Shown here: piece by piece, positions 726-64,000 of the stretch
How positions within the stretch are numbered: position 1 is the first letter of the stretch
Layout: the number at the start of each line of letters is the position of its first letter
Source: an uncultured Alphaproteobacteria bacterium
GTDB taxonomy: Bacteria; Pseudomonadota; Alphaproteobacteria; Rhizobiales; Afifellaceae
Length of the DNA: 64,000 nucleotides
Assembly: GCA_963814905.1 (NCBI GenBank)
Contig: CAWFEM010000008.1
Span: 141,282-205,281, forward strand
Reading direction: 5' to 3'
Translations under genes and position numbers: made by a program
Notes under the pieces: generated by a model
Database searches by the model: none
What the model was told of the DNA's origin: nothing
Seen by the model: the letters and a program-made list of their open reading frames with translations, nothing else

Positions 726-1610
726 ATGCCCGAGCTTCCGGAAGTGGAGACGGTCCGGCGCGGCCTTGAGCCCGTGCTGGCGGGCGCGAGGATCGCGCGG
801 GTCGAGCAGAGACGGCCGGATCTGCGCTTTCCCCTGCCAAAACGGTTTGCCGCACGCCTGACCGGCCGCCGCGTCACCGCGCTTCGCCGCCGCGCCAAAT
901 ACCTGCTGGCGGAACTCGACGACGGCAATGTGCTTCTCATGCACCTCGGGATGTCGGGGTCGTTCCGGGTGGAGAGCGATGCCATCGTCCGCCAGGCGGG
1001 GATCGATCCCCGCTACTATCCGGCCGGCAAGGACAGCGCCCACGACCACGTCGTGATCCACCTGAAGGGGGGCACGCGCGTCGTCTATAACGATCCGCGC
1101 CGCTTCGGCTTCATGCTTCTCGTTGCGCCGCGTGCGCTGGCCGGGCATCCGCTCCTGAAAGGGCTTGGCCTGGAGCCGACCGGCAACGAATTGTCGGCCG
1201 AAGCGCTCAGCCCCCGCTTCAAGGGCCGCGCCGCGCCTTTGAAGGCGGTGCTTTCCGACCAGCGGGTGATTGCCGGGCTCGGGAACATCTATGTCTGCGA
1301 GGCGCTGTGGCGCGCGCGGCTTTCGCCGCGTCGCGCCGCCGGAACCCTGGTCCGGGCGGACGGCAAACCGACCGAGCGGCTTCAGCGCCTCGTGGAGGCG
1401 GTGCGGGCGGTGATTGCGGAGGCCGTCGCGGCGGGCGGCTCTTCTCTGCGCGACTACGTGCAGGCGAATGGCGAACTCGGCCTGTTCCAGCATCGTTTCG
1501 CCGTCTATGACCGCGAGGGGAGCCCGTGCCCGCGCGCCGACGGCGGCACGATCCGGCGCATCGTTCAATCCGGCCGCTCGACCTTCTATTGTCCGGTCTG
1601 CCAGCGGTAA
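726..1610 (+). CDS. mutM: Formamidopyrimidine-DNA glycosylase (Fpg/MutM)
   Basis: Track ORF of 294 aa. It has the catalytic N-terminus MPELPEVE and the C-terminal zinc finger ...STFYCPVCQ. It lies divergent from ubiE, as in many alphaproteobacteria. Confidence 0.95.
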
Positions 1611-1643
1611 GCCGCCAATCGCCAATTCAACCTGGAGGGCTTG

Positions 1644-2417
1644 ATGGCCTACGAGAACATCCTGGTCGAGCGCCACGGCCGCGCAGGGCTGATCCGGCTG
1701 AACAGTCCCAAGACCCTGAACGCGTTGTCGAAGAGCCTGGTCGCCGACGTGAACGATGCGCTCAGCGCCTTCGAAGCGGACGAAGGGATCGGCGCGATCG
1801 TCATCACCGGCTCTGAAAAGGCGTTCTGCGCCGGCGCCAATATCCGCGAGGTCGCGGGCGCCGATTTCGAGACGGTCTACCGCGACGACCCGGTGCGCGA
1901 ATGGGACCGCGTCGCGGATTGCCGCAAGCCGATCGTCGCGGCGGTCGCCGGATACGCGCTCGGCGGCGGCTGCGAGCTTGCCATGATGTGCGACATCATC
2001 CTTGCCGCCGACACCGCGAAATTCGGCCAGCCGGAGATCACGCTCGGCATTATTCCGGGCGCCGGCGGCACGCAGCGCCTGACCCGCATGATCGGCAAGG
2101 CGAAGGCGATGGAGTTGTGCCTGACCGGACGGCTGATCGACGCCGCGGAGGCGGAGCGGGCGGGCCTTGTCTCCCGCATCGTCCCTGCGGCGGAACTGGT
2201 GGAGGAAGCGCTGAAGGTGGCCGAGAAGATCGCCTCCTTTCCGCTCTCTGCGGTGATGATGGCGAAGGAGAGCGTCAACCGTGCCGAGGAGACGCCGCTT
2301 TCGGAGGGGCTGCGCTTCGAGCGCCGGCTCTTCCACGCGCTTTTCTCGACCGAGGACCAGAAGGAGGGGATGGCCGCCTTCCTGGAGAAGCGCGCCCCGA
2401 AGTTCCGCGGCGTCTGA
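1644..2417 (+). CDS. Enoyl-CoA hydratase (crotonase family)
   Basis: Track ORF 1641..2417 starts at TTG and was trimmed to ATG 1644, which follows GGAGGG at 1634-1639. Crotonase blocks are present: [44 protein letters not shown]. Confidence 0.9.
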
Positions 2418-2439
2418 GGTCGAAAAACCCGCGCTTTTC

Positions 2440-2468
2440 CTTGACGGGAGGGGGCGCGATACCTATAG
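2440..2468 (+). promoter_or_regulatory. Candidate sigma70-type promoter of rpsT
   Basis: CTTGAC (2440-2445), a 17-nt spacer, then CTATAG (2463-2468). This matches the alphaproteobacterial consensus CTTGAC-N17-CTATAT. It lies ~110 nt upstream of the rpsT ATG, and the leader contains an 8-bp hairpin acccgcgg/ccgcgggt. Confidence 0.5.
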
Positions 2469-2579
2469 GACTGCGCTCAAACCCGCGGCCGCGACCGCGG
2501 GTGTCCTTTATCGCGGTCCCGCGCCGCTTTCCCGGCGCGCCGCCCCGGTCGGAAGACCCGGAAGACTTAAGGAACGAAC

Positions 2580-2843
2580 ATGGCGAATACCCCGTCGGCC
2601 AAGAAGGCCATGCGCAAGATGACGCGCCGGACGGCGATCAACAAAGTTCCGCGCACGCGCATGCGCGGCTTCATCCGCAAGGTCGAAGAGGCGATCGCCT
2701 CCGGCGACAAGGCGGCGGCGCGCGCCGCGCTGCAGGCGGCGCAGTCGCAGATCATGAAGGCCGCCTCCAGAGGCATCGTCCATCGCAACACCGCCTCGCG
2801 CAAAGTCTCGCGTCTCAACCATCGCGTCGAAGCGCTTGCCTGA
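2580..2843 (+). CDS. rpsT: 30S ribosomal protein S20
   Basis: 87 aa basic protein [22 protein letters not shown]...[16 protein letters not shown], a typical S20 sequence and length. Confidence 0.95.
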
Positions 2844-2871
2844 GGTCGTTGAGACGTCACTCGAACAAAAA

Positions 2872-2900
2872 GGCTCGATCCATTCGGATCGGGCCTTTTT
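2872..2900 (+). terminator. Rho-independent terminator after rpsT
   Basis: ggctcgatcc-attc-ggatcgggcc forms a 10-bp stem with one G-U pair. It is followed by TTTTT, 29 nt after the rpsT stop. Confidence 0.7.
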
Positions 2901-3483
2901 CGTTACTGCGTGGTGTGACAAGGGCTTACAGGTAGTCGCGGCGACAAGCGGTAACGGACTTCCGCGGATTTCATTGGGCGGGCGAGTCTGGTCGCTGCGA
3001 CACTCACTAAATTCACGATAGATCGCAATTGGTTAACGACGAGAGCGAAAGCGGGCCTCGATTTCGGATGCGGTCAGTGTGAGTCAAGGCGCGCGCAGAA
3101 AAAAAACATGATGTGACTTTCGCATCGCATCGTCGCGGCGCACTCAGTGCAATTGATTTGGTATCACCGAGGCTTGCCATAATTTCGCCTATCGGCCCGT
3201 CGCGTCCCTCGTCGCCCCGATCGTCTCAGCCACCTCTTGACCCGTTTACTAGCGAACTCGGTTTGCTATGGTCTCGGCGGACGGGGCGAGCCCGGCAGCG
3301 GAACGAGTAAGTAAGAGGCGGTGGGAGCGAAGTTCCAAAAAGCGTCCTCCTGCGCGAAGAAGGTTTTTCGTTCCTCGTAGAGTCAAGTTGCCTGCGTCGC
3401 GTCTCTCCCATCTGGGAGTTCATGGCATGCTCTCCGTGTCGGGGGCTGCCGTTTCTATCTCGATTGCGTAGAGGCGTGGCCGA

Positions 3484-3951
3484 ATGCGTTCGGCCGCAAC
3501 GGGGGTGCTTTGTCTGATGCCGCAGGGGTATCTGGCCGATGCGACGCCGAGGGAGACGTGGGACGTCCTGGCGAGTGAGCCGAAGGCTGCGCTCGTCGAC
3601 GTGCGCACCGCCGCGGAGTGGAGCTATGTCGGCCTGCCCGATCTCTCTGCGATTGAAGTCCCGCTGTTGCGTGTCGAGTGGCAGCTGTTTCCCTCCGGCG
3701 CCGTCAATCGAGAGTTCGTTGAGGCGTTGTCGGATGCGTTGGACACGGCGGGCGTCGGGCGGGACGGGCCGCTCTACTTCATCTGCCGCTCCGGCGCGCG
3801 CAGCGCCTCGGCGGCGGCGGCGATGACGGAGGCGGGTTATGCGCGTTGCTACAACGTGGCGGGCGGCTTCGAAGGGCCGCGCGACGCGGAGGGGCACCGC
3901 GGCACGGTTGAAGGCTGGAAGGCGGCGGGTCTGCCGTGGGTCCAGGCGTGA
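3484..3951 (+). CDS. Rhodanese-like (sulfurtransferase) single-domain protein
   Basis: The track ORF contains the active-site loop context ...LYFICRSGARSASAAAAMTEAGYARCYNVAGGFEG (CRSGxR). The start is uncertain; the in-frame ATG at 3517 (MPQGY...) is an alternative. Confidence 0.75.
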   Translation: MRSAATGVLCLMPQGYLADATPRETWDVLASEPKAALVDVRTAAEWSYVGLPDLSAIEVPLLRVEWQLFPSGAVNREFVEALSDALDTAGVGRDGPLYFICRSGARSASAAAAMTEAGYARCYNVAGGFEGPRDAEGHRGTVEGWKAAGLPWVQA

Positions 3952-4018
3952 GCGTCATTCCTCGGTATGCGTGTGCGTTTGAGAACAAACACATGAAATT
4001 TGATCTTGGAGGCCTTGA

Positions 4019-5470
4019 ATGTCAGCGGGTGCGGCAAGCGAGCGGGAGTTCGCCGGAAAAGACCCCGATGGGGCCGATTCTGCGAACAAAAAAGAAGCCG
4101 CCGGCATATGGGATCGCGTAAGACGCCGGCTACGCGCGGAATTGGGTGAAGACGTTTTCAGTTCTTGGTTCGCCAGAGTCGATCTTGAGAGTACCGACGC
4201 GGGCGTCGTACGCCTTTCGGTGCCGACGGTCTTTCTTAAGGGATGGATCAAATCCCATTACGGTGACCGCATGCTCGCGCTTTGGCGCGAGGAGGATGCG
4301 AACGTGCGCCGCGTCGATGTCCTGCGGCGGACGGCGCTCAGGGTGGTTCAGGAGGAGCCGCGTTCCGCATTGGCCGGCCGGCCCGCACAGGCGCCGGCGG
4401 CCGAGATTGCCGGCGATCGCTTCGGCGGCTCGCCGCTCGATCCGCGGCTGACTTTCGTGACCTTTTGCGAAGGCCGTTCAAACGACGTCGCATGCCGCGC
4501 CGCGCGTGCCGTCGCATCTGCGCCGGAAGGGAGCGCGCCGCCCTACAACCCGCTCTATATCCATGCGGGCGTGGGGCTCGGGAAGACGCACCTCCTTCAG
4601 GCCATCGCCAACGAGGCGCGCGCGCTCAATCCGAGCCGTCGCGTCCGCTACCTGACGGTGGAGCGCTTCACGATCCAGTTCGTCGGAGCGTTGCGCGACC
4701 GCTCCGCGCTCGACTTCAAGGAGCAGCTTCGCTCGATCGACATCCTCCTGATCGACGACATGCAGTTCCTGACCGGGCGCGCCGTGCAGCAGGAGTTCTG
4801 CCACATGCTGAACCAGCTCCTCGACAGCGGCAAGCAGGTGGTTGTCGCCGCCGATCGGCCGCCGGCGGAGCTGGAAGGGGTCGACGAGCGCGTGCGCTCG
4901 CGAATGAAGGGCGGTGTCGTCGTCGGCATGGCGCCACCGGACCTCGCCATGCGCCGGCGCATATTGGAGAACCGGCTCGCCGCCGCCTGCGACCGCAACC
5001 CGAGCCTCGTCATCCCCGAGCCGGTGCTCGACTACGTGGCGCAGGTGGTGACCAGCAACGGCCGCGATCTCGACGGAGCGCTGAACCGTCTCGTCTGCCG
5101 CTCCGAATTCTCCGACGCGGCGATGACGATGGAGGTCGCCGAGATGGCGATCGCCGACCTCGTCGGCGTGCGCGAACCGAGGCGCATCCGCATCGAGGAC
5201 ATCCAGAAGGTCGTTGCCAGCCACTACAACGTCTCCAAGCAGGACCTTCTGTCGGCGCGGCGTACCCGCGCCATTGTGCGACCGCGCCAGATCGCGATGT
5301 ACCTGGCGAAAACGATGACGCCGCGCTCCTTCCCGGAGATCGGCAAACGCTTCGGCGGACGCGACCACACCACCGTACTGCATGCTGTGCGTAAGGTGGA
5401 GGAGCTTGCCGCCGCGGACGAGACGCTGGCCCAGGAGATCGAGCTTTTGAAGCGCTTGATCCAGGATTAG
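4019..5470 (+). CDS. dnaA: Chromosomal replication initiator protein DnaA
   Basis: 483 aa with GGAGG 6 nt upstream of the ATG. It has N-terminal [17 protein letters not shown], Walker [11 protein letters not shown], Walker B LLIDDMQF, and the C-terminal DNA-binding domain ...[10 protein letters not shown]...[15 protein letters not shown]. Confidence 0.97.
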
Positions 5471-5484
5471 CGTCTGCCGCGAGT

Positions 5485-5551
5485 GCCGGAAGGGGCCGTC
5501 GCGACCCGCCTCCCTGGGCGCGACCGGCGCTCCTTCCGGCTCTTGTCTTTC
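5485..5551 (+). terminator. Candidate terminator / structured element after dnaA
   Basis: A long hairpin forms between gccggaagg (5485-5493) and ccttccggc (5532-5540), with an inner gtcgcg/cgcgac pairing. It is followed by the T-rich tcttgtctttc. Confidence 0.45.
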
Positions 5552-5630
5552 ATGACATGCCGGGTCAAGTTCCTGCGTTGCCAATGGCCGGGCATCCACC
5601 GATTCTGCCCGGTCTCCACGGATTGAAATC

Positions 5631-6746
5631 ATGCGCGTCAGAATTGAACGGGCGAACCTCCTAAAGGCGCTCAACCACGTCCATCGGGTCGTCGAGCGGC
5701 GAAACACGATCCCGATCCTCGCCAACGTGCTGCTCAAGGCGGAGGGCGACGAATTATCGCTGAAAGCCACCGACCTCGACCTGGAGATCGTCGACAAAGC
5801 GCCCGCCGCCGTCGAGCAGCCGGGCGCCGCCACCGTCCCCGCCCACATGCTCTACGACATCGTTCGCAAGCTGCCGGACGGGGCGGAGATCGCGCTCGAC
5901 ACCGAATCCGGGCAGTCGATGGCGCTGAAGGCCGGACGCGCCCGTTTCGCGCTGCAAATGCTGCCGGATTCCGACTTTCCCGATCTGAACGCCGGCGACC
6001 TGCCGGTCGCCTTCACGCTCACCGCCGAGGTGCTGAAGCGGCTGATCGATCGCACGCAGTTCGCCATCTCCACCGAGGAGACGCGCTACTATCTGAACGG
6101 CATCTATTTCCACGTGGTCGGCGAGGGCGCCGATGCGCGGCTGCGCGCGGTTGCGACCGACGGGCATCGGCTCGCCAAGGCGGAAGTGCCGGCCCCGAAG
6201 GGAAGCGCCGGCATGCCCGGGATCATCGTGCCACGGAAGACCGTCGGCGAGATCCAGAAGCTCTTGGAGGACCCGACCGCCGACGTCGCCGTTAGCCTTT
6301 CCGATTCCAAGATCAGGCTGGCGATGGGCGAAATGGTGCTCACCTCCAAGCTGATCGACGGCACCTTCCCCGACTACGAGCGCGTGATCCCGAAGGCGAA
6401 CGACAAGGTGCTGACCCTCGACAAGTCGGAGTTCAAGAACGCCGTCGACCGCGTCTCCACCATCTCCTCTGACCGCGGCCGGGCCGTGAAGCTCAGCTTG
6501 GCGGACGACAAGATGACGCTCGCGGTGAACAATCCGGATTCCGGCTCGGCCACCGACGAACTCGCCGTCGGCTATGAGGCGGAGCCGCTCGATATCGGCT
6601 TCAATTCCAAGTATCTGCTCGATATCGCCGACCAGCTCACCAGCGAGGAAGCGATCTTCAAGCTCGCCGATCCGGGCTCGCCCACGCTCATCCAGGATGC
6701 CGGCGACGGCGACGCGATCTACGTGCTGATGCCGATGCGGGTGTGA
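5631..6746 (+). CDS. dnaN: DNA polymerase III beta sliding clamp
   Basis: 371 aa; MRVRIERANLLKALNHVHRVVERRNTIPILANVLL...YVLMPMRV. It sits in the canonical position after dnaA. Confidence 0.97.
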   Translation: MRVRIERANLLKALNHVHRVVERRNTIPILANVLLKAEGDELSLKATDLDLEIVDKAPAAVEQPGAATVPAHMLYDIVRKLPDGAEIALDTESGQSMALKAGRARFALQMLPDSDFPDLNAGDLPVAFTLTAEVLKRLIDRTQFAISTEETRYYLNGIYFHVVGEGADARLRAVATDGHRLAKAEVPAPKGSAGMPGIIVPRKTVGEIQKLLEDPTADVAVSLSDSKIRLAMGEMVLTSKLIDGTFPDYERVIPKANDKVLTLDKSEFKNAVDRVSTISSDRGRAVKLSLADDKMTLAVNNPDSGSATDELAVGYEAEPLDIGFNSKYLLDIADQLTSEEAIFKLADPGSPTLIQDAGDGDAIYVLMPMRV

Positions 6747-7948
6747 GTCGCGGCCCCGCCGCGCCGGATGCCTTGCCGTTAGAACCGCCCGCCGCGACGC
6801 CCGCGCCCGACCGCGTGACGCTGAGCGCGCTCGCGCTCACCGACTTCCGCAACTATTCAACCGCGCGCCTCGCGCCGGAAGCAGCGCTTGTGGCGCTGAC
6901 CGGCGAGAACGGCGCCGGCAAGACAAACCTGCTTGAGGCGATCTCGCTGCTGACACCCGGACGCGGGCTCCGCCGCGCGCGCTACGAGGAGATCACGCGG
7001 ATCGGCGCGCCTGCGGGCTGGGCCGTGTCCGCAACGATTTCGCGCAACGGCGAGGAGGCCCGCCTCGGCACCGGGCTTGCAGAGAACGGCGCTGGGGACG
7101 CGCGCCCCCAGGATCAACGACGCGTCGTTCGGATCAACGGCGCGCCGGCCGCGTCCGCCGATCTTCTTCTCGAATATCTCCGCGTGCTTTGGCTGACGCC
7201 GGCCATGGATGGGCTCTTCACCGGTCCGGGGTCGGAGCGGCGGCGCTTCCTCGACCGGCTCGTCCTGGCGATCAACTCCGCCCACGGACGCCGCGTCAGG
7301 GAATTCGACAGGCTGATGACACAGCGGAACCGCCTGCTCGACGAGAATGCCGGCGCACGATGGCTCGACGCCGTGGAGGCGGAGCTTTCCGGCCGCGCCA
7401 TCGCCGTGGCGCTGGCGCGCGCGGAGACGGTGACGCTCCTTTCCGCCCGCATGGAGCGCGCGGAGGCTTCGCTCTTCCCCGCCGGGCGGCTATCGCTTCT
7501 CGGCGACTTCGACGCTGCGCTGGCCGGACGCAGCGCCGCGGAGGCGGAGCTTGCCTATCGCGAGGCCCTAGGCCTCGGCCGTGCCGCCGACCGGGCCGCA
7601 GGCCGGACCCTCTCCGGCCCGCACCGCAGCGATCTCGACGTCGTTCTCGTGGCAAAGGAGATGCCCGCCGCCCGCTCCTCGACCGGCGAGCAGAAGGCGC
7701 TGCTGATCGGGCTGATCCTCGCCTATGCCGAGATCGTCGCGGAAACGAGCGGGATGACACCGCTCCTGCTCCTCGACGAGGTGGCGGCGCATCTCGATCA
7801 GGGCCGGCGTCTGGCGCTTTTTGAGCGGCTTTCGAGGCTTGGCTGCCAGGCGTTCCTGACAGGTGCCGACCCGGCGCTTTTCGCTGACCTGCCGGCCGCC
7901 GCCGTCCGCTTTCGGGTGGCCGCGGGGACCGTCGGTCCGCTAGAGTGA
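6743..7948 (+). CDS. recF: DNA replication and repair protein RecF
   Basis: Walker A GENGAGKTNLLEAISLL, signature-like STGEQKALLIGL, and Walker B LLLDEVAAHLD are present. The GTG start at 6743 overlaps the dnaN TGA (GTGA). Confidence 0.93.
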   Translation: MSRGPAAPDALPLEPPAATPAPDRVTLSALALTDFRNYSTARLAPEAALVALTGENGAGKTNLLEAISLLTPGRGLRRARYEEITRIGAPAGWAVSATISRNGEEARLGTGLAENGAGDARPQDQRRVVRINGAPAASADLLLEYLRVLWLTPAMDGLFTGPGSERRRFLDRLVLAINSAHGRRVREFDRLMTQRNRLLDENAGARWLDAVEAELSGRAIAVALARAETVTLLSARMERAEASLFPAGRLSLLGDFDAALAGRSAAEAELAYREALGLGRAADRAAGRTLSGPHRSDLDVVLVAKEMPAARSSTGEQKALLIGLILAYAEIVAETSGMTPLLLLDEVAAHLDQGRRLALFERLSRLGCQAFLTGADPALFADLPAAAVRFRVAAGTVGPLE

Positions 7949-7964
7949 GCCAAAGGCATCGGCC

Positions 7965-8576
7965 ATGGATCCCGCCGCTCTCGCAATCTTCGCGCTCGTA
8001 CTCTTCGTCGCCGCCGCTTCGCCGGGACCGGCGATCGTGGCCCTCGTCGCGCGTGTGCTTATCCAAGGGACAGCGGGCGCGTTTGCATACATGCTCGGGC
8101 TCGCCGTCGGCGACCTCTTCTGGTTGACCTGCGCGGTTCTGGGCTTGGCTTTCGTCGCGAAGACGTTTGTGTGGCTGTTCCTGGCGCTGAAATATGCGGG
8201 CGCCGCCTACCTCCTTTATCTTGCGTGGCGGATGTGGACGGCGCCGGCCGAGGTGGCGACTACCGATGCGCCGAAGGCGGAGCACCCCTTCCGCCTCTTC
8301 CTGACCGCGCTTTCGATCATGCTTGGCAACCCTAAGGTGATGATCTTCTACCTCGCTTTGCTACCCAATCTGATCGATCTCGCCCACGTTTCCGCGCTCG
8401 GCTTTGCCGAACTGGCCGTGGTCACGGTCCTCGTGGTGACCACGGTTGACGGGGGCTACGTGCTGATGGCGGCGAGGGTCGGGAGGCTGCTTCGTCGGCC
8501 CACAATTATCCGCTCCGTGAGACGGGCTTCCGGCGCGCTCATGGCCGGCGCCGCGGCCGTTGTCGCAAGCCGCTGA
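7965..8576 (+). CDS. LysE/RhtB family amino-acid exporter
   Basis: 203 aa polytopic membrane protein. It has the family-typical N-terminus ...AASPGPAIVALVARVL and overall LysE-like length and topology. Confidence 0.85.
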   Translation: MDPAALAIFALVLFVAAASPGPAIVALVARVLIQGTAGAFAYMLGLAVGDLFWLTCAVLGLAFVAKTFVWLFLALKYAGAAYLLYLAWRMWTAPAEVATTDAPKAEHPFRLFLTALSIMLGNPKVMIFYLALLPNLIDLAHVSALGFAELAVVTVLVVTTVDGGYVLMAARVGRLLRRPTIIRSVRRASGALMAGAAAVVASR

Positions 8577-8661
8577 AAAACCTTAATTTTCCGGCATAAA
8601 GAAAGCGCTCGTGAAGGCCCTTTTGGGGCTTCATTTCCATGCCCGGAATGACCATCTATAA

Positions 8662-11157
<2,496 letters not shown>

Positions 11158-11274
11158 TCGAGGTAACCTTGTTACTCACAGGTTCCTCACGATTTACTGA
11201 GCGTGCGGATTAGGAATTCGACCGCCGCCGAGGCTCGGCTACTAAGACGCCGCAACACGCCTTACGGAGAACCA

Positions 11275-11676
11275 ATGTTCGACCGCCTTTCCGCGTATTC
11301 GCCTTACGCTCTCGCTGTCCTCAGAATCATCGTGGCCCTGCTCTTCATCGAGCACGGGACGATGAAGCTCTTCGGCTTTCCCTCCGCGATGCCGATGGAG
11401 GTATCGCTCTTCTCGTTGTTCGGGCTGGCGGGCGTGATTGAGATCGTCGGCGGGGTATTGATCCTGCTCGGGTTCTTCACTCGGATCGTCGCCTTCGTGC
11501 TTTCCGGGGAAATGGCCGTCGCCTATTTCATGGCGCACGCGCCGCAGGGCTTCTGGCCTGTCGTGAACCAGGGCGAGGCGGCGATCCTCTTCTGCTTCGC
11601 CTTCCTCTATCTCGTCTTCGCGGGGCCGGGCGCGTGGAGCGTGGACGGCGCAACGCATTCAAAAGCCTCCGCCTAA
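11275..11676 (+). CDS. DoxX family membrane protein
   Basis: The track ORF was trimmed to ATG 11275, preceded by GGAGA. The 133 aa sequence MFDRLSAYSPYALAVLRIIVALLFIEHGTMKLFGFP... has four TM segments, a typical DoxX pattern. Confidence 0.8.
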   Translation: MFDRLSAYSPYALAVLRIIVALLFIEHGTMKLFGFPSAMPMEVSLFSLFGLAGVIEIVGGVLILLGFFTRIVAFVLSGEMAVAYFMAHAPQGFWPVVNQGEAAILFCFAFLYLVFAGPGAWSVDGATHSKASA

Positions 11677-59227: not shown

Positions 59228-59447
59228 GGCCCTTCTTCTTTCAAAAGTCGGCGAGGTCGACGCCGGGCACCAATAGCTTTGGAAAGCATGGCGGGTCCAG
59301 TCGTGGGGGAGCGGCATCGTCTCCGGCCCTTGTCACCGGGAAGCACCGTCTCGCGTCATGGGAGGGTTAAGAGCCGGATTCGGCGGAACACCGCGCCTTG
59401 TGGACGAAGCGTCGTGCAAGCCGGCGAAGAACGGTCGCGTCTCGCGA

Positions 59448-59477
59448 TTGACCGGACTTCTCTCCACGGCGCAATAT
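59448..59477 (+). promoter_or_regulatory. Candidate sigma70-type promoter of the dioxygenase operon
   Basis: TTGACC (59448-59453), an 18-nt spacer, then CAATAT (59472-59477). It lies about 29 nt upstream of the ATG 59506, which is preceded by GAGGAGGAGG. Confidence 0.35.
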
Positions 59478-59505
59478 CATCGCAGGTTGCGGTGAGGAGG
59501 AGGCC

Positions 59506-61335
59506 ATGCTCGGGAGACTGGCCGAGGCGTTGTTCGCGCAGATCAATCGCGTGCGCGTTTGGCACCGGCTGCCATTCCTGCCGTTGCGTATCGCTAATCT
59601 CCTGATCATCCGTCGCGGCCTGCGCCGCCTCAACCTTCACGATACGCAACGCGGCGGCTTTCCGCGGCCCGAGAACGACGTCGGGCCGGAGTTGTATCGC
59701 GTCGGCCGCACGGTCGATGGCAGCTACAACGATCTCGCCACACCCGCGATGGGCATGCGCGGCATGCGCTTCGGCCGCAACGCCCCCGTCGACAGCCTCA
59801 AGATCCCGACGGCGCGCGACATCATGGAGCCGAACCCGCGCGAGGTGAGCCGCCGGCTCCTGGCGCGGCGTAACGGCGAGTTCCACGCCGTCCCCTATTT
59901 GAACGTCTTCGCCGCCGCCTGGCTGCAATTCCAGACGCATGACTGGTTCGGCCATCCGCGCGACGATCAGAATCCGCATGAGATCCCGCTTGCCGACGGC
60001 GACGAATGGCCGAGCGCGGAGCGCAAGATCCGCTTCGGCCGGTCGCAGCCCGACAAGGAAGCCTATGCAGATCGCGGTCTGCCGCCGGCCTTCGTGAACA
60101 CCGAATCGCACTGGTGGGATTGCGGCCAAGTCTACGGCAAGGATGAAACGCGTCAGCAGGCACTGCGCACCGGGGTGGAGGGCAAGCTCAAGGTCGGGTC
60201 GGACGGTCGGCTCGAAAAAGAGGCGACGGGGCTTGAGCTGACCGGCGTCAACGACAATTGGTGGGTCGGTCTGTCGCTGCTCCACACGCTCTTCACGCGC
60301 GAGCACAATGCGATCTGCGACCGGCTGATCGCGGCCTATCCGTCGCGCCGCGGCGACGACGAATGGCTCTACCAGAAGGCGAGGCTCGTCACCATCGCCG
60401 TGATCGCCAAGATTCACACCGTCGAATGGACGCCGGCGCTCCTGAACAACCCGACCATGCGCTTCGCCATGCGCGCCAATTGGTGGGGCGCCTTCGGCGA
60501 GACCTTCTACCGCGAGCGCGGGCGCGTCACCCAGGGCGAGACGCTGCAGGGGATTCCGGGCTCCGTGACCGATCACCACACCGCGCCCTATTCGCTGACC
60601 GAGGAGTTCGTCGCCGTCTACCGGATGCATCCCCTGATGCCGGATGTCTTCGATTTCCGCTCGCTTGCCGACGATTCGCCGATACGCGGCGCCGAAGCGC
60701 TCGATTTTCGCGGTGTCTCCGGCAAGCGCACCGTCGACCTTTACGAGCGCATGTCGCAGGCCGACGCCGCCTATTCGCTCGGCACCCGCAATCCCGGCCA
60801 GGTCAGGCTGCGCAATTATCCGAGCGGGCTCTCGCACTTCGAGCGGCAGGATTCCCTTTCGGGCACGGAGAGCAGCGACTTCTTCGATCTCGGGACCGTC
60901 GACGTCGTGCGCGACCGCGAGCGCGGCATCCCGCGCTACAACGATTTCCGCCGCATGCTGCGCATGCCGCCTTTCGAGACGATCGATCAGATCACGTCGA
61001 ACAAGGAATGGGCGGCGGAGATCGGCGCCGTCTACGGCGGCGACGTGGAGAAGGTAGACACCATCGTCGGACTTCTCGCCGAGGACCTGCCGGAAGGCTT
61101 TGGCTTCTCCGACACGGCGTTCCGCATCTTCATCGTGATGGCATCGCGGCGGCTGAAGAGCGACCGCTTCTTCACCGTCGACTTCACCTCCGATATGTAC
61201 ACGCCGGAAGGCATGGACTGGATCAATCGCACCTTCATGACGGATGTGCTTTTGCGCCATATGCCGGAGCTTGAGCCGGCGCTGCGCGGGGTAAAGAACG
61301 CGTTCTTCAAATGGCGGGAAGCGAAACCGCAGTAA
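59506..61335 (+). CDS. Haem peroxidase-cyclooxygenase superfamily protein, plant alpha-dioxygenase (alpha-DOX/PIOX)-like fatty-acid dioxygenase
   Basis: 609 aa. The distal-His block is FAAAWLQFQTHDW (His codon 59938-59940). The radical-Tyr/proximal-His block is EEFVAVYRMHPLMP (Tyr codon 60619-60621, His three residues later). Other blocks are LFTREHNAICD, IAKIHTVEWTP and DRERGIPRYNDFRR. It is colinear with plant alpha-DOX as I remember it. Confidence 0.85.
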   Translation: MLGRLAEALFAQINRVRVWHRLPFLPLRIANLLIIRRGLRRLNLHDTQRGGFPRPENDVGPELYRVGRTVDGSYNDLATPAMGMRGMRFGRNAPVDSLKIPTARDIMEPNPREVSRRLLARRNGEFHAVPYLNVFAAAWLQFQTHDWFGHPRDDQNPHEIPLADGDEWPSAERKIRFGRSQPDKEAYADRGLPPAFVNTESHWWDCGQVYGKDETRQQALRTGVEGKLKVGSDGRLEKEATGLELTGVNDNWWVGLSLLHTLFTREHNAICDRLIAAYPSRRGDDEWLYQKARLVTIAVIAKIHTVEWTPALLNNPTMRFAMRANWWGAFGETFYRERGRVTQGETLQGIPGSVTDHHTAPYSLTEEFVAVYRMHPLMPDVFDFRSLADDSPIRGAEALDFRGVSGKRTVDLYERMSQADAAYSLGTRNPGQVRLRNYPSGLSHFERQDSLSGTESSDFFDLGTVDVVRDRERGIPRYNDFRRMLRMPPFETIDQITSNKEWAAEIGAVYGGDVEKVDTIVGLLAEDLPEGFGFSDTAFRIFIVMASRRLKSDRFFTVDFTSDMYTPEGMDWINRTFMTDVLLRHMPELEPALRGVKNAFFKWREAKPQ

Positions 61336-62312
61336 ACGCCGCGCCGCTTGCGGCGGGGTCGGATCGGAACATGGCTCGACATTTGCGGATACCGGGCTTG
61401 GCTGATCTCTTCACCGCCGATGAGGCGGGGTCGATCCGCACGCTCGACGCGCATCCGCGCATCGATCGCGTCTTCGACCCGGAGGGTCCGCTCCTGACGC
61501 GCATCCTGCGCGCGCGCATCCGTACAGTCTTCCATATCGACGGCCGGCTCTGGCCCGCCTTCCTGCCGCGCGGCGACGAAGCTCGTCAGAGGGACGGGGA
61601 GGCGCTACATGCGCGCCTCAGCAGCCACGCGCGCCGCAACGCCTTCGACGTCGACGCGCTCGACAGTCTCGCCGCTCTGCTGCTCGCGCCGGACGCCACC
61701 CGTCCGGCGATCGGAGAGGCGATGCAGCAGGCCGTGGGGCGCGCCTTCCATTCCGGATTCCAGGCGACGCCGGAGACCTATGCCGCCGCCGACCGCCTCG
61801 CGAACTGGCCGCAGGCCGGGCCCTTGCGGTCGTTGTGGATGACGCTTTCCGGCTCCATCCAGCGCTCGCGGCGCGTGATCCTGGAGGCGGCGAAGAACGA
61901 TCCCTATTGCGCCCACGCCATCTCGCTGGCGCTTCCGAACATGATCGCGAGCTTCGAGCGGATGCGGGCGCTCCGGCGCGCGACGCCGGACCTGACGGAG
62001 ATGCGCTCCACGGCCGCGGCGCTCAGTGTCATACGCGGTCCGCGCACGCTGATCCGCGGCGTGCGGCCGCTCGTGCTTCCCGCCGATCCGCGGCTCGCGC
62101 TGCGCCGTCCGAACGTCAAGATCGACGTGCCGGAGACGAAGAAGCCACTCAGGCGCGGTGCGCTCGTCCGCTTCGATCGCGGCAAGGCGCAAAGCGTCGA
62201 CCACCGGCTCGTCTTCGCCGAGGACAATTGGTCGGCCTGCCCGGCGCGCGACTGGGTCCCGGAGCTCTTTGCCGAGATATGGCGGCGCGCCATTCGCCGA
62301 GGTGAGCCGTGA
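61311..62312 (+). CDS. Orphan protein in the dioxygenase operon (no family recognised; possible distant P450-like C-terminus)
   Basis: 333 codons from ATG 61311, which overlaps the dioxygenase 3' end by 25 nt. ATG 61371 is an alternative start. Codon usage is coding-like, and the stop overlaps the GTG of the next gene (GTGA). The C-terminal ..FAEDNWSACPARDWVPELFAEIW weakly resembles a P450/CYP74 Cys-ligand loop. Confidence 0.6.
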   Translation: MAGSETAVNAAPLAAGSDRNMARHLRIPGLADLFTADEAGSIRTLDAHPRIDRVFDPEGPLLTRILRARIRTVFHIDGRLWPAFLPRGDEARQRDGEALHARLSSHARRNAFDVDALDSLAALLLAPDATRPAIGEAMQQAVGRAFHSGFQATPETYAAADRLANWPQAGPLRSLWMTLSGSIQRSRRVILEAAKNDPYCAHAISLALPNMIASFERMRALRRATPDLTEMRSTAAALSVIRGPRTLIRGVRPLVLPADPRLALRRPNVKIDVPETKKPLRRGALVRFDRGKAQSVDHRLVFAEDNWSACPARDWVPELFAEIWRRAIRRGEP

Positions 62313-63643
62313 ACGACGACCCGATCTTCCGGCCGCTGCGCTTCAAGAGCGGGCTCAGGGTGAAGAACCGCATCTTCCGCTCGTCGATCTCCGGGCAGTT
62401 CGACAACGAGGACGGCTCCGGCACGCAGACCCGCATCAACTGGGAGGCGCGCTTCGCGCGCGGCGGGGTGGGCGCCATCATCTCCTCCTACGTGCCGGTA
62501 ATGATGCGCGGCCGCATCCTTCCCTTCTACGCCACCATCCATCGCGACGAGCACATTCCGTTCTGGCGGACGGTCGGCGAGCAGGCGCGCAAGTTCGAAT
62601 GCCGCTTCATCATGCAGCTCAGCCATTCGGGGCGGCAGCAGGACCGGCCCGGCGTGTCCAACCGCTGGCGCAAGGCGCTCTCCTCCACCTCGCGCACAGA
62701 ATCGCTGCACGGCTTTCCCTGCCAGGCGATGACGCGCTGGCAGATCGACGACGTGATCGACGCCTTCGGCCACGGCGCGCGGCGCGCCCAGGAGGCGGGG
62801 CTCGACGGCGTCGAACTGCACGCCGCGAACGGCTACCTCTTCACGCAGTTCTTGAGCTCCGGCATCAACGACCGCACCGACGAATATGGCGGCTCGCTTT
62901 TTAATCGCGCCCGCTTCCTGCTCGACGTGATCGCCAGGGTCCGAGACTTCGTCGGCCCGGGCTTCCACCTCCAGGTGAAGCTCTCGGCGATCGACCAGAA
63001 CGACGTCATCCCCTGGGAGCCGAAAGGCGACGGGCTGGCGGAGACGGTGCAGGTGGCGAAGTGGGTGGAAGCGGCCGGCGCCCACGCGATCCACGTCTCC
63101 ACCGGCAGTCTCTTCCCGCATCCGCTCAATCCGCCCGGCGGCTTCTCCTTCAACTCGATCGCCGCGACCTACGACGCCATGATCTCGTCGGGCACGCGCA
63201 CGATGCGCAACTACCTGCTCTTCCGCTACCACCTGCTGCGCCCGATCTTCGCGTTCGTCTGGGAGCGCAAGAAGAAGCTCAATCCGCCTGAGGGTGTCGG
63301 CCTCGACGAGGCGCGCGCCATCAAGCAGGCGGTCTCCATTCCCGTGATCTCGACCGGCGGCTACCAGGACGCGCGGCTGATCCGTTTGGGGATCGAGGAA
63401 GGGTCGTTCGACGCGGTTGCGATCGCGCGGCCGCTCATCGCCAATCCCGACCTCGTGCGCTGGTTCGAGAAGGGCTACGATCTGCCGGAGCGGCCCTGCA
63501 CCTATTGCAACAAGTGCCTCTTGAATGCGCCGAAGAATCCGCTCGGCTGCTACGAGCTGCCGCGCTTCGACGGCGACGTGGAGAGGATGCTCGCCGAGAT
63601 CCTCTCCATCTACGACACCGCCCCGAACTACCGGGTCACTTAG
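62309..63643 (+). CDS. NADH:flavin oxidoreductase, Old Yellow Enzyme family
   Basis: 444 aa. Blocks are GVGAIISSYV, FIMQLSHSGRQ, DGVELHAANGYLFTQFLSSGINDRTDEYGGSLFNRARF and AVAIARPLIANPDL. Confidence 0.9.
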   Translation: MNDDPIFRPLRFKSGLRVKNRIFRSSISGQFDNEDGSGTQTRINWEARFARGGVGAIISSYVPVMMRGRILPFYATIHRDEHIPFWRTVGEQARKFECRFIMQLSHSGRQQDRPGVSNRWRKALSSTSRTESLHGFPCQAMTRWQIDDVIDAFGHGARRAQEAGLDGVELHAANGYLFTQFLSSGINDRTDEYGGSLFNRARFLLDVIARVRDFVGPGFHLQVKLSAIDQNDVIPWEPKGDGLAETVQVAKWVEAAGAHAIHVSTGSLFPHPLNPPGGFSFNSIAATYDAMISSGTRTMRNYLLFRYHLLRPIFAFVWERKKKLNPPEGVGLDEARAIKQAVSIPVISTGGYQDARLIRLGIEEGSFDAVAIARPLIANPDLVRWFEKGYDLPERPCTYCNKCLLNAPKNPLGCYELPRFDGDVERMLAEILSIYDTAPNYRVT

Positions 63644-63659
63644 GGAACGGAGCGAAGCT

Positions 63660-64000
63660 ATGCTAAGTCCCGATCCCCCGGTCACGCTCGTTCAAGAGGT
63701 GGGCGACCGCGCTCGGCGCAGACGCTTCTGGACTCTCGGGCCGATCCTGCTGGTCCTCGTCATCCTCGCGATCGTCGCCATCGCCAATATCTGGCGCCTC
63801 TACACCAACGAGCCGGTTCGCTACGCCAATATCGGCGACCACTTCAAATACGGCTCGATCGGCAGCGAGCCGGAGAGCGGGCTTCCCTATTGGATGTGGC
63901 GCGCGCTGCCGATCATGTTCGAGAACGAGCTCGGGCCGGACGGGCTCTCCGTCTTCGGGTTCCTCTACGAGGCGGGGCGCGATCTGCCGATCGGCGTCTC
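63660..64000 (+). CDS. Membrane-anchored hypothetical protein (N-terminal part; continues beyond the window)
   Basis: ATG 63660 follows GGAACGGAG, 17 nt after the OYE stop. One TM segment (FWTLGPILLVLVILAIVAIANIW) is followed by DHFKYGSIGSEPESGLPYWMWRALPIMF. No CxxCH or other diagnostic motif is seen in the visible part. Confidence 0.55.
   Translation, partial: MLSPDPPVTLVQEVGDRARRRRFWTLGPILLVLVILAIVAIANIWRLYTNEPVRYANIGDHFKYGSIGSEPESGLPYWMWRALPIMFENELGPDGLSVFGFLYEAGRDLPIGV

Follow-up and report, generated by a model that had tools for sequence, protein, structure and literature searches.

Towards the 3' end of the window (the whole 64,000-nucleotide stretch of DNA analysed here), a gene without obvious identity lies between those for an alpha-dioxygenase-like haem dioxygenase (DOX) and an OYE-family FMN enzyme (OYE); the locus therefore poses the question of what its product, here called X, might be, and what it does in such company. 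The initial annotation had proposed an orphan protein carrying a possible degenerate P450/CYP74-like cysteine loop.

Gene boundaries and extent of the X family

The open reading frame reported at 61311–62312 on the forward strand is present in the sequence. Its 333-amino-acid reading, with the ATG at 61311, is ruled out: this ATG falls within the final codons of DOX (K-W), the DOX–X spacer of relatives contains indels that break the frame, and the Met equivalent to position 61371 is the start in every homologue. On the strength of the spacer indels and homologue starts we place X at 61371–62312 (+; 313 amino acids), such that 61311–61370 (+), initially counted as an in-frame upstream extension, lies outside the gene; its description below as a minimal P450-fold protein draws on AF2 modelling, Foldseek, dN/dS and homologous clusters. 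The start is thus 35 nt 3' of the DOX stop (61335), and the translational coupling to DOX that had been proposed was mistaken. Coupling on the downstream side holds good, with the X stop (TGA, 62310–62312) and the GTG start of OYE (62309) sharing the sequence GTGA, a 4-nt overlap.

The region is approximately 70% G+C and carries many long spurious open reading frames on both strands; X could in principle be one more such chance frame, or its likeness to P450s a modelling artefact. The probability of this is negligible, the comparative data having already refuted it: its homologues number in the hundreds and share both length and motifs, X is under purifying selection (dN/dS 0.15–0.28 for five orthologues), the position of the gene is conserved, and two AF2 runs made from different alignments returned the same fold family.

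The label ‘orphan’ did not survive a wider search, which found 17 close relatives and, at the level of a profile, matches to at least 372 protein clusters at 50% identity, mostly from soil metagenomes. A narrow X alignment found 7 loci when searched against genomes, and a phylum-wide sample (five first-look candidates scored per genome) gave one further carrier in 400 genomes, so that the survey of species genomes is nearly empty. It is correct, as first remarked, that X has no recognised family: all members are unnamed, those checked being annotated ‘hypothetical protein’ without exception, and X has no match in Pfam, NCBIfam, PADLOC or the PDB sequences. Among 97 family members tested there is no Pfam family in common and none (0/97) matches the Pfam p450 family (PF00067), with X itself unmatched at E<=1; a genome-wide PF00067 search produced matches at other loci and none at X. 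An hhalign comparison of the family with 29 genuine P450s from related genomes gave an insignificant probability of 1.9%, and is used here solely as a hint of colinearity. When the 97-sequence profile was searched against PDB sequences, the sole result was a weak 58-residue match to PdxS (E 0.003); being short, confined to a low-complexity loop and helix, and contradicted by the fold search, we attribute it to chance. As judged by sequence searching, X belongs to an unannotated family without detectable relatives outside itself.

Predicted fold and the conserved cysteine

The initial annotation had suggested a Foldseek comparison of an AlphaFold model. We obtained one AF2 model from 97 homologues (pLDDT 93.6, pTM 0.90) and another, independent model (pLDDT 74.7); for each of the two, all 50 of the 50 top PDB matches listed by Foldseek are cytochrome P450s, with no unrelated fold among them (E down to 3e-5, probability 1.00, query-normalised TM mostly ~0.5–0.6). 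The fold in question is a helix-rich triangular prism that has an N-terminal beta-sheet, a long I helix and an L helix. The similarity is moderate (TM 0.5–0.6, rmsd 6–7 Å). The P450-like shape originally suspected for X is, at the level of the predicted fold, borne out, and the models describe a very small, highly diverged P450-shaped protein in which the fold is pared down to ~300 residues; typical bacterial P450s are roughly 100 residues longer. Set beside normal P450s, the model has no A-helix region at its N-terminus, one helix fewer in the B'/J set and no C-terminal beta-sheet; this sheet is missing because the chain ends directly after the terminal helix (residues 295–311; 62253–62303, +; DSSP of the models), which we read as helix L. 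An alignment also reveals a clade-specific insertion of ~20 residues (232–252; 62064–62126, +) in which the confidence of the model is lowest (pLDDT 67–77) and which distant members such as P0017 lack.

The longest helix (residues 178–204; 61902–61982, +) is probably the P450 ‘I’ helix, as read from DSSP, conservation and a colinear, low-confidence hhalign alignment; His182 within it is 97% conserved and Asn190 81%. The same helix holds the SFERMR segment (194–199). Both this and the quoted C-terminal segment, LVFAEDNWSACPARDWVPELFAEIW, are present and lie 94 residues apart, as originally described, but the proposal that SFERMR represents the ExxR of helix K is rejected on the basis of secondary-structure order, the weak colinear profile alignment and conservation: E196-x-x-R199 sits in the probable I helix, and Glu196 is less than 70% conserved in the wide family. 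The helix placed as K (213–220) has no ExxR and neither a conserved Glu nor a conserved Arg, and the long helix of the X family shows no evident conserved acid–alcohol pair of the kind that serves O2 activation.

The cysteine first singled out as P450-type fares better. In the 313-residue numbering it is C290 (C310 of the initial annotation; codon 62238–62240), part of a loop F282-x4-W287-x2-C290-P291-A292 (62214–62246, +). Across 102 diverse members C290 and P291 are 100% conserved, W287 99%, A292 96% and F282 91%, with C290 the sole invariant Cys of the family; the motif W-x-x-C-P-A is also found in all 51 of 51 independently sampled metagenomic members. In the models C290 sits 2–5 residues ahead of the terminal helix, matching the position of the P450 thiolate before helix L. 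The hhalign alignment, insignificant as it is, is colinear and pairs C290 with the P450 haem Cys, and P224/R229 with the P-P...R that follows helix K. The P224...R229 motif (62040–62057, +) thereby takes the place of the post-helix-K ‘R-L-x-P-P...R’ by conservation (99% for each of the two residues across the family), hhalign and model alike. Given its invariance and its place before the last helix, C290 is most likely the haem thiolate ligand, with R229 a candidate ligand for a haem propionate.

The loop itself departs from the PROSITE PS00086-type pattern, F-x-x-G-x-[RH]-x-C-x-G: X reads F282-A-E-D-N-W-S-A-C290-P-A, in which Phe is at -8 rather than -7, position -4 lacks Gly, position -3 is Trp, and the fit is limited to C-[P]-[A]. 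The CYP74-like pattern ‘C-x-x-[KR]-D-[YFW]-V’ that had been noted is present in the clade to which the window belongs, whose A-C-P-A-R-D-W-V resembles the C-A-G-K-D-[YF]-V of CYP74, but does not extend to the family as a whole, positions 293–294 being unconserved; with R293-D294-W295 confined to this clade and no P450 HMM match, X falls outside CYP74 by sequence, membership of which calls for that match, the CYP74 insertion in the Cys loop and the motif N-K-Q-C-A-[GA]-K-D. P450s are among the most studied of enzyme families, and yet the X family escapes both the P450 HMM and every name-giving pipeline checked; at ~300 residues it may therefore show the minimum fold needed to hold a thiolate haem.

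Extreme divergence, with the ExxR and the canonical signature both lost, would also suit a P450-fold protein that has given up haem and catalysis to become an accessory, serving DOX or OYE as chaperone, scaffold or membrane tether, on the model of EryCII and DesVIII, the P450-derived helpers of macrolide glycosyltransferases. X is the fastest-evolving gene of its cassette, as such a role might allow, and in five clusters it is fused to the cassette's small 4-TM protein, suggesting tethering. We nonetheless think an accessory role improbable: the invariant feature of the family is Cys-Pro at the thiolate position, accompanied by W287, F282, P224 and R229 at 91–99%, whereas hemeless helper P450s have lost the Cys at this position; moreover, stand-alone members of the family have no partner to assist.

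The cassette and the linkage of X to DOX

DOX (59506–61335, +; 609 amino acids; PF03098, E 3e-100) is the first gene of the cassette, and its product matches rice fatty-acid alpha-oxidase (4KVJ, E 8e-120) and Arabidopsis alpha-DOX (4HHR, E 6e-105) over the full length. It retains the motifs YRMH, which aligns with YRMH of rice alpha-DOX, and MASRRL..DRFFT; the catalytic Tyr is present three residues before the proximal His, and sequence comparison indicates that the catalytic and carboxylate-binding residues of alpha-DOX are kept. OYE (62309–63643, +; 444 amino acids; PF00724, E 7e-57) combines the ene-reductase motif H-A-A-N-G-Y with a C-x2-C-x2-C-x11-C (4Fe-4S-type) motif, has no NAD(P)H/FAD domain and gives partial matches to FadH, BaiCD and bilirubin-reductase models. 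Beyond it, the 5' part of a gene for a membrane-anchored RoxA-like dihaem cytochrome c (63660–64000, +) runs off the window; it is assigned through its orthologue at locus L006, a protein of 520 amino acids that has a TM segment at its N-terminus, matches PF21419 and carries two CxxCH motifs. A RoxA-like gene is found 3' of OYE in 66 of the 67 loci with room downstream, and the full five-gene cassette consists of DOX, X, the Fe-S OYE, the RoxA-like dihaem cytochrome and the small (4-TM) membrane protein. The same cassette occurs in a Sphingomonadaceae MAG and other genomes, with X identities of 31–34%.

The initial annotation had proposed looking for co-occurrence of X with alpha-DOX homologues, and the linkage between the two is very strong. 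In 56 metagenome loci with room upstream, chosen by their neighbouring OYE gene alone, DOX is present in 46, and in all 46 X lies between DOX and OYE; the remaining 10 have neither, there being no locus with just one of the two. Within the genus, the genomes with an orthologous DOX are the same 6 that have X, the two genes being neighbours in every case, and DOX is found in 0/12 others. The OYE–RoxA loci without DOX were also checked for a divergent X; the ~290-amino-acid ORF 5' of OYE there proved unrelated to X and without a Pfam match. Five protein clusters are fusions of DOX and X, in the order DOX-X (P0081, P0125) or X-DOX (P0051, P0052, P0133), and all five retain the CPA motif, H182, P224 and R229.

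There are exceptions. One tight soil clade (P0196, P0252) stands alone, with neither DOX nor OYE, and at locus L060 the run X-OYE-RoxA has no DOX next to it, from which it follows that X can do its work with no DOX close by. At one locus X is found between a DyP-like peroxidase and an An_peroxidase. This last setting, together with the glyoxalase-family, AraC/GyrI-like and efflux genes that surround the stand-alone clade and the CYP152 peroxygenases (OleT, P450BSbeta) among the listed Foldseek matches, would be in keeping with a haem-thiolate peroxygenase or peroxidase of broader role, in organic hydroperoxide detoxification or H2O2-driven oxidation, for which the link to DOX is protective. 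We regard this as quite improbable, as co-presence with DOX in 46/46 loci and fusions in both orders are a better fit to substrate channelling.

Proposed chemistry and related systems

The reading that we favour, by a modest degree, is that X is a minimal haem-thiolate enzyme transforming the hydroperoxide made by DOX. X travels with DOX, and is sometimes fused to it, such that the DOX lipid hydroperoxide would be its most likely substrate. Under this scheme, DOX would convert a fatty acid to a (2-)hydroperoxy fatty acid, and X, its putative haem lying between the last helix and the long central one with the thiolate supplied by C290 of C290-Pro-Ala, would transform this without an external oxidant, in the manner of class-III P450s and of the P450 domains in fungal DOX-CYP fusions. 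The O–O bond would be cleaved at the haem, and rearrangement, dehydration or oxygen rebound would follow. An activated C=C of the product would next be reduced by the Fe-S/FMN OYE, unless the latter instead passes electrons to X. Several observations weigh against the scheme: no sequence method links X to the P450s (Pfam 0/97, hhalign 1.9%); the structural match has a TM of 0.5–0.6 and an rmsd of 6–7 Å, with the canonical signature and K-helix ExxR both absent; it is not obvious how a 2-hydroperoxy acid made from a saturated fatty acid would lead to the activated alkene that an ene-reductase requires; and X, the fastest-evolving member of the cassette, has a stand-alone clade and, in L060, a locus without adjacent DOX.

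The second possibility for OYE, that of an electron donor, leads to an alternative in which X is a haem-thiolate protein requiring electrons and OYE its dedicated reductase, either in a peroxidase cycle taking the 2-hydroperoxide to the 2-hydroxy acid, such that DOX and X form an alpha-hydroxylase system, or with X as an O2-activating monooxygenase; taking the two versions together, we consider this possible though unlikely. The genes for X and OYE abut in most loci, overlap by 4 nt here, and stay together in L060 even without an adjacent DOX. Furthermore, with a 4Fe-4S-type motif and no NAD(P)H/FAD domain, the cluster of OYE must talk to some partner, and reductases combining FMN and Fe-S are known partners of P450s (CYP116B/P450RhF type). 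Set against this, OYE retains the H-x-x-N-G-Y residues, pointing to an alkene substrate of its own; OYE–RoxA modules without X or any P450 occur in 10/56 loci, so OYE is not there solely to serve X; and the family includes stand-alone X clades without OYE and has no evident conserved acid–alcohol pair.

A hydroperoxide-transforming X, as favoured above, has a close parallel in the fungal DOXs that are fused to self-sufficient P450s (PMC13049297, PMC11719350). These DOX-CYP fusions (Ppo/linoleate diol synthases, 9-DOX-AOS, 10R-DOX-EAS) unite a DOX of the peroxidase-cyclooxygenase superfamily with a P450-fold partner, as proposed here, and their P450 domain is believed to need no redox partner in acting on the DOX hydroperoxide, as may be true of X. 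Their order, N-terminal DOX and C-terminal P450, is matched by the X-family fusions P0081 and P0125, whilst the reverse, X-DOX, also exists (P0051, P0052, P0133); in the window itself DOX and X are two genes separated by the 35-nt spacer rather than one polypeptide. The fungal P450 domain has ~450 residues compared with ~300 for X, which the P450 HMM misses and whose C-P-A follows W-x-x in place of an H-x-C-x-G pocket. The window's DOX is of the alpha-DOX type (YRMH), not the 8/9/10-DOX type, and the cassette adds the Fe-S OYE and a periplasmic dihaem cytochrome. Strictly paired with alpha-DOX and occasionally fused to it, X would be the bacterial equivalent of what fungi have in DOX-CYP.

On the origin of the P450 partner in fungal DOX-CYP, a 2026 review went no further than to suggest ‘an ancient bacterial ancestor’ (PMC13049297). 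In the boldest version of our reading, which we rate as rather doubtful, the X family would be the smallest known self-sufficient haem-thiolate (P450-fold) enzyme family and a surviving bacterial form of the kind of P450 that fungi came to fuse to their dioxygenases, and the cassette would specify a bacterial oxylipin pathway. The sequence DOX to X to Fe-S ene-reductase would then parallel that of dioxygenase to allene-oxide synthase to OPR (OYE) in the jasmonate synthesis of plants, and lipid on the periplasmic side would be dealt with by the RoxA-like dihaem enzyme together with its small membrane partner. More generally, the favoured reading of X supplies a five-gene cassette that had lacked an explanation with a hypothesis of bacterial lipid oxidation open to direct testing, and X may prove useful as a new, compact biocatalyst in hydroperoxide chemistry.

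The logic proposed for X is also that of CYP74 and the class-III P450s (AOS, HPL, PGIS, thromboxane synthase), which rearrange a fatty-acid (hydro)peroxide without O2 or NAD(P)H. X differs from CYP74 in having no detectable sequence homology to it, in the family-wide lack of conservation of R-D-W and in being ~170–200 residues shorter; there are no CYP74 entries among the 50 listed Foldseek matches of either model. CYP152 enzymes (P450BSbeta, P450SPalpha, OleT) act at C-alpha/C-beta of free fatty acids with peroxide and without redox partners, and two of them, OleT and P450BSbeta, are among the structural matches of X; they are, however, full-length (~415–425 amino acids), Pfam-detectable and without linkage to DOX, and X has no detectable sequence similarity to them.

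A tandem logic like that proposed for DOX and X is reported for Nostoc punctiforme, in which a COX-related linoleate 10S-DOX is encoded next to a small haemoprotein, a catalase-related 10S-hydroperoxide lyase, that consumes its hydroperoxide (Brash et al. 2014, J Biol Chem 289:13101; cited in PMC9579011). The window differs in that its DOX is alpha-DOX-like and in that X is predicted to have a P450 fold, with a putative Cys ligand, where the Nostoc partner has the catalase core fold and a Tyr haem ligand; P450s make up all 50 listed Foldseek matches of both models. A paralogous DOX in the same genus (G007, G009) is itself fused to a catalase-related domain of the type described for Nostoc, with 3e4w as best PDB match.

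Lastly, a paralogous cassette in a sister genome of the same genus (L065) follows the same logic with a canonical P450 in addition to An_peroxidase, LOX-like, Fe-S OYE and RoxA-like genes. X has no significant similarity to this P450 by hhalign or HMM comparison. The L065 protein has 429 residues, matches PF00067 (E 1e-19), carries the full F-x-x-G-x-R-x-C-x-G and, unlike X with its place between DOX and OYE, is encoded after the RoxA-like gene; its Cys loop reads F-L-S-G-A-R-A-C-P-G-R-D, to be compared with A-C-P-A-R-D in X.

Gene boundaries and relatives of X

A reading frame of 333 codons is present at 61311–62312 (+). Its 5' neighbour is an An_peroxidase-family gene (the alpha-dioxygenase-like DOX, 59506–61335 (+); PF03098, E 3e-100), its 3' neighbour an Oxidored_FMN gene (the flavin enzyme OYE, 62309–63643 (+); PF00724, E 7e-57). 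The initial annotation placed the protein (~313–333 aa) at 61311–62312, coupled to its neighbours on both sides; we see instead that the start methionine of 17/17 close homologues falls at the position equivalent to 61371, that the ATG at 61311 coincides with K-W codons of the DOX C-terminus when the DOX–X junctions of six genomes are aligned, and that in the same alignment the spacer 3' of the DOX stop carries 3- and 19-nt indels, with conservation restarting at GGATCGGAAnATGGC. Homologue starts and junction alignment together place the true gene, X, at 61371–62312 (313 aa), beginning 35 nt past the DOX stop. Upstream coupling falls with the longer reading, its ATG being inside DOX; downstream coupling stands, the TGA stop of X and the GTG start of OYE overlapping as GTGA. 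No plus-strand terminator-like sites were found within 59250–64000. Values of dN/dS between 0.15 and 0.28 (five orthologues) mark X as a genuine gene on which purifying selection acts.

Nor is X an orphan, as had been supposed: profile searching recovers hundreds of relatives, though none is named. X has no match in Pfam, NCBIfam, PADLOC or the sequences of the PDB, and a word-indexed search yields 17 relatives; 1.84 billion representatives, searched exhaustively with a profile, yield 372 clusters at E<=1e-3, including 116 at E<=1e-30, and a second profile search lists 632 proteins, the sole recorded name being ‘hypothetical protein’. Carriers among titled genome records are uncultured Alphaproteobacteria, Propylenella sp. 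(Hyphomicrobiales) and Sphingomonadaceae MAGs. Among species-representative genomes X is rare, being present in 6/18 of the window's genus, 0/42 other relatives and 1/400 other genomes of the phylum.

Predicted fold and the cysteine loop

Two AF2 models of X, one from 14 close sequences (pLDDT 74.7) and one from 97 diverse sequences (pLDDT 93.6, pTM 0.90), were compared with the PDB by Foldseek; for both, all of the best 50 matches listed are cytochrome P450s—StaP/CYP245A1, NysL, AmphL, BM3, CYP175A1, OleT and P450BSbeta among them—with E-values down to 3e-5, a probability of 1.00 and TM-scores normalised to X of mostly about 0.5–0.6. The P450 resemblance originally proposed from a C-terminal motif is borne out by these matches, and, judging from the models, X very probably has a P450 fold. 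From the N-terminus onwards, the AF2 model comprises a beta-hairpin (residues 2–16), nine helices of which the last, 178–204, is also the longest, a short helix (213–220), two strands (226–231 and 265–269) followed by a loop, and a final helix (295–311); elements that we take to represent beta1, helices B to I, helix K, beta1-4/beta1-3, the Cys loop and helix L of the canonical P450 plan. The A-helix region, one B'/J helix and the C-terminal sheet appear to be absent from the model, which would account for roughly 100 missing residues. Membership of CYP74, also raised at the outset, was not upheld, with 0/97 X members matching PF00067 or any common Pfam family. As modelled, X would represent a new, miniature branch of the P450 fold, undetectable by sequence and tied to alpha-dioxygenases.

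The suggestion of a Cys loop ahead of an L-helix-like terminal helix proved largely right. Across 102 diverse X members, five fusion domains among them, C290 (Cys310 when counted from 61311) and P291 are 100% conserved, followed by W287, P224 and R229 (99%), H182 (97%), R33 and A292 (96%), R72 (92%) and F282 (91%); the motif W-x-x-C-P-A recurs in 51/51 further full-length members, sampled via a neighbouring gene rather than X. In the AF2 models C290 precedes the terminal helix by 2–5 residues, a placement like that of the P450 thiolate, which precedes helix L, and we consider it likely that X binds haem via this thiolate. That X might be a haem-free accessory protein is improbable, such a role being disfavoured by the invariant Cys-Pro.

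Run at permissive settings, an hhalign comparison of the X family with 29 genuine P450s of related genomes was insignificant (probability 1.9%) and colinear over 265 columns. The pairings resting on this insignificant alignment are of C290 with the P450 haem Cys, of L-x-A-P224-x-x-V-L-R229 with the post-helix-K R-L-y-P-P....R, of p-l-x-x-G-T-L-V with the P450 ‘i-p-x-G-x-x-V’ strand, and of the start of helix 178–204 with the segment of helix I around A-G-x-E-T-T. SFERMR (194–199), at first read as the P450 ExxR, falls in the long helix 178–204, where it would occupy the C-terminal half of helix I rather than being the K-helix ExxR; Glu196 is conserved in <70% of the 102 members and R199 in 82%. 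Candidate distal residues are H182 and H189/N190, separated by two turns of the long helix (family consensus H-A-T-x-I-A-x-H-N, position 189 being Pro in the window's clade). We infer these helix assignments, and any haem contacts, from predicted models and the alignment.

Linkage of X to the dioxygenase

All loci of the close X family share the order DOX, X, OYE, RoxA-like dihaem cytochrome c and small 4-TM protein, and the DNA outside this five-gene block varies from locus to locus. Cassette order is kept at just 31–34% X identity, in L001, L058 and the Sphingomonadaceae locus L054. An orthologous DOX (82–86% identity) occurs in exactly the six relatives that carry X, adjoining X each time, and in 0/12 others of the genus.

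For a sample unbiased by X, metagenome contigs were searched with OYE, which is better conserved, and the best 80 OYE loci were scored for X, DOX, the RoxA-like gene and the small protein (L102 being settled by eye), the upstream test being limited to the 56 loci having at least 1550 nt 5' of OYE. DOX is present in 46/56, and X lies between DOX and OYE in 46/46; the other 10/56, whose OYEs are more distant (57–65% identity), are without both. Given also that a RoxA-like gene lies 3' of OYE in 66/67 loci with downstream room, the core module is OYE–RoxA(–small), and DOX and X are present or absent as a pair. Directly 5' of OYE where DOX and X are absent lies a different ORF, conserved and some 290 aa long (FWY.FATNG..GFLLDL.RRP...; L129 3995–4948 (+), L138 4055–4984 (+) and L143 3968–4969 (+)), unrelated to X and with no Pfam match.

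DOX and X are also found fused in five representative clusters, as DOX–X (P0081, P0125) or X–DOX (P0051, P0052, P0133), with key residues kept in all five, and DOX-linked members populate both major halves of the X tree. The X–DOX partnership proposed initially is largely borne out by co-occurrence: in the OYE-anchored loci, in the exact match within the genus and in the fusions. The exceptions are a tight soil clade of stand-alone X in unrelated contexts (P0196, P0252), a locus with X–OYE–RoxA and no adjoining DOX (L060), and L062. The stand-alone clade fits a general peroxide detoxifier; the DOX/X fusions do not, and we regard such a role as very improbable. In L062 (4466–12815) one neighbour of X is a gene (499 aa) weakly resembling DyP-type peroxidases and the other a distant An_peroxidase in two ORFs, with an FAD_binding_4 oxidase next; another haem-peroxidase setting for the family.

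Comparing L001, L054 and L004–L008 with window 59506–63643, X outpaces its operon partners in evolution: identities in L001 are 44% for DOX, 31% for X, 65% for OYE and 51% for the RoxA-like protein, and within the genus 82–86, 68–75, 87–93 and 78–100%, respectively. Copies of DOX, X or the RoxA-like gene split by frameshifts or a TGA occur in MAGs (L050, L053, G003:C26:279140-280076, P0014–P0016), reflecting either assembly errors in long-read MAGs or decaying cassettes.

Neighbouring proteins and possible role of X

Over its full length DOX aligns with the fatty-acid alpha-oxidase of rice (4KVJ, E 8e-120) and with alpha-DOX1 of Arabidopsis (4HHR, E 6e-105), retaining Y-R-M-H, the distal AAAW(L/I)QF..HDW block and M-A-S-R-R-L..D-R-F-F-T; motifs we take to supply the radical Tyr, proximal His, distal His and carboxylate Arg pair of plant alpha-DOX. 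From these kept residues, a 2-hydroperoxy fatty acid is the expected product. The RoxA-like protein (gene from 63660 (+), running off the window) carries a TM anchor at its N-terminus together with two CxxCH motifs and should therefore be periplasmic; hydrophobic segments suggesting export or membrane insertion were found in none of X, DOX and OYE. Many cassettes (L066–L145) have tandem pairs of RoxA-like genes, often with a small membrane-protein gene behind each, and the small gene of L006 (13880–14293) has a weak DUF6041 match (E 8.5e-4). In five further clusters (P0027, P0068, P0075, P0107, P0121) the C-terminus of X continues into the small 4-TM protein known from the end of the cassette, with a shared ending ...LMTRP / LDSKP, an arrangement that suggests membrane attachment of X.

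The OYE at 62309–63643 is a short Fe-S flavoenzyme with an ene-reductase motif: its H-A-A-N-G-Y-L presumably corresponds to the H191/N194/Y196 pattern of OYE1, C-x2-C-x2-C-x11-C at residues 397–414 is like that of FadH-type Fe-S flavoenzymes, and at 444 aa it is without the NAD(P)H/FAD domain that its FadH-type or enoate-reductase-type relatives have. Such a flavoprotein could supply electrons to X, making X a hydroperoxide reductase (yielding 2-hydroxy acids) or a monooxygenase; this is the main rival reading, albeit an unlikely one. We lean slightly towards X as a P450-fold haem-thiolate protein transforming the DOX hydroperoxide without external electrons; for the direct, electron-independent transformation taken by itself the chances appear even. 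Against this reading, a 2-hydroperoxy acid derived from a saturated fatty acid gives no evident path to an activated alkene for the OYE ene-reductase.

Parallels exist. Two genomes of the genus, neither containing X (G007, G009), encode a paralogous alpha-DOX-like protein (43–46% identity) with a fused N-terminal catalase-like domain (954–1093 aa; PF00199, E 6.5e-9 and 1.9e-4), at L063 (G007:C77:5500-13500) 2896–6174 (-) and L064 (G009:C4:1030000-1039000) 3648–6509 (-); the closest PDB relative of this domain is 3e4w, which we take to be the 33-kDa catalase-related protein of M. avium paratuberculosis. G013 also has, some 25 kb from its DOX–X cassette, a second cassette (L065, G013:C1:600000-612000, 804–11568) comprising an An_peroxidase (973 aa), a weak lipoxygenase-like protein (584 aa), OYE (448 aa), a RoxA-like cytochrome c, a canonical P450 (429 aa, FLSGARACPGRD; PF00067, E 1e-19; loop F-L-S-G-A-R-A-C-P-G-R-D) and a phage-type integrase. 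The characterised partner of Nostoc 10S-DOX is, as related in a passage of PMC9579011, a catalase-related hydroperoxide lyase (Brash et al. 2014), and sections of PMC13049297 and PMC11719350 describe fungal DOXs as joined to self-sufficient P450s by which the hydroperoxide is isomerised or dehydrated; those sections of PMC13049297 describe no bacterial DOX–P450 pair, and no description of the X family or its cassette was found in the literature searched. Bacterial and fungal haem dioxygenases are recurrently accompanied by a second haemoprotein that consumes the hydroperoxide, a role that X, with its modelled P450 fold and invariant Cys at the predicted thiolate position, would fill here.

By coordinates alone, G004, G005 and G016 each have an An_peroxidase-like match and a PF00067 P450 match sharing a contig, some 6 kb from each other. 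In P0087 (550 aa) X runs in frame into sequence like the N-terminal end of the catalase-related domain (…LTFLDDLPKDLRAGFAQPGKHYKATVRFSS); X and the catalase-related protein may thus be neighbours or fused, beyond being alternatives, or this may be a read-through artefact.
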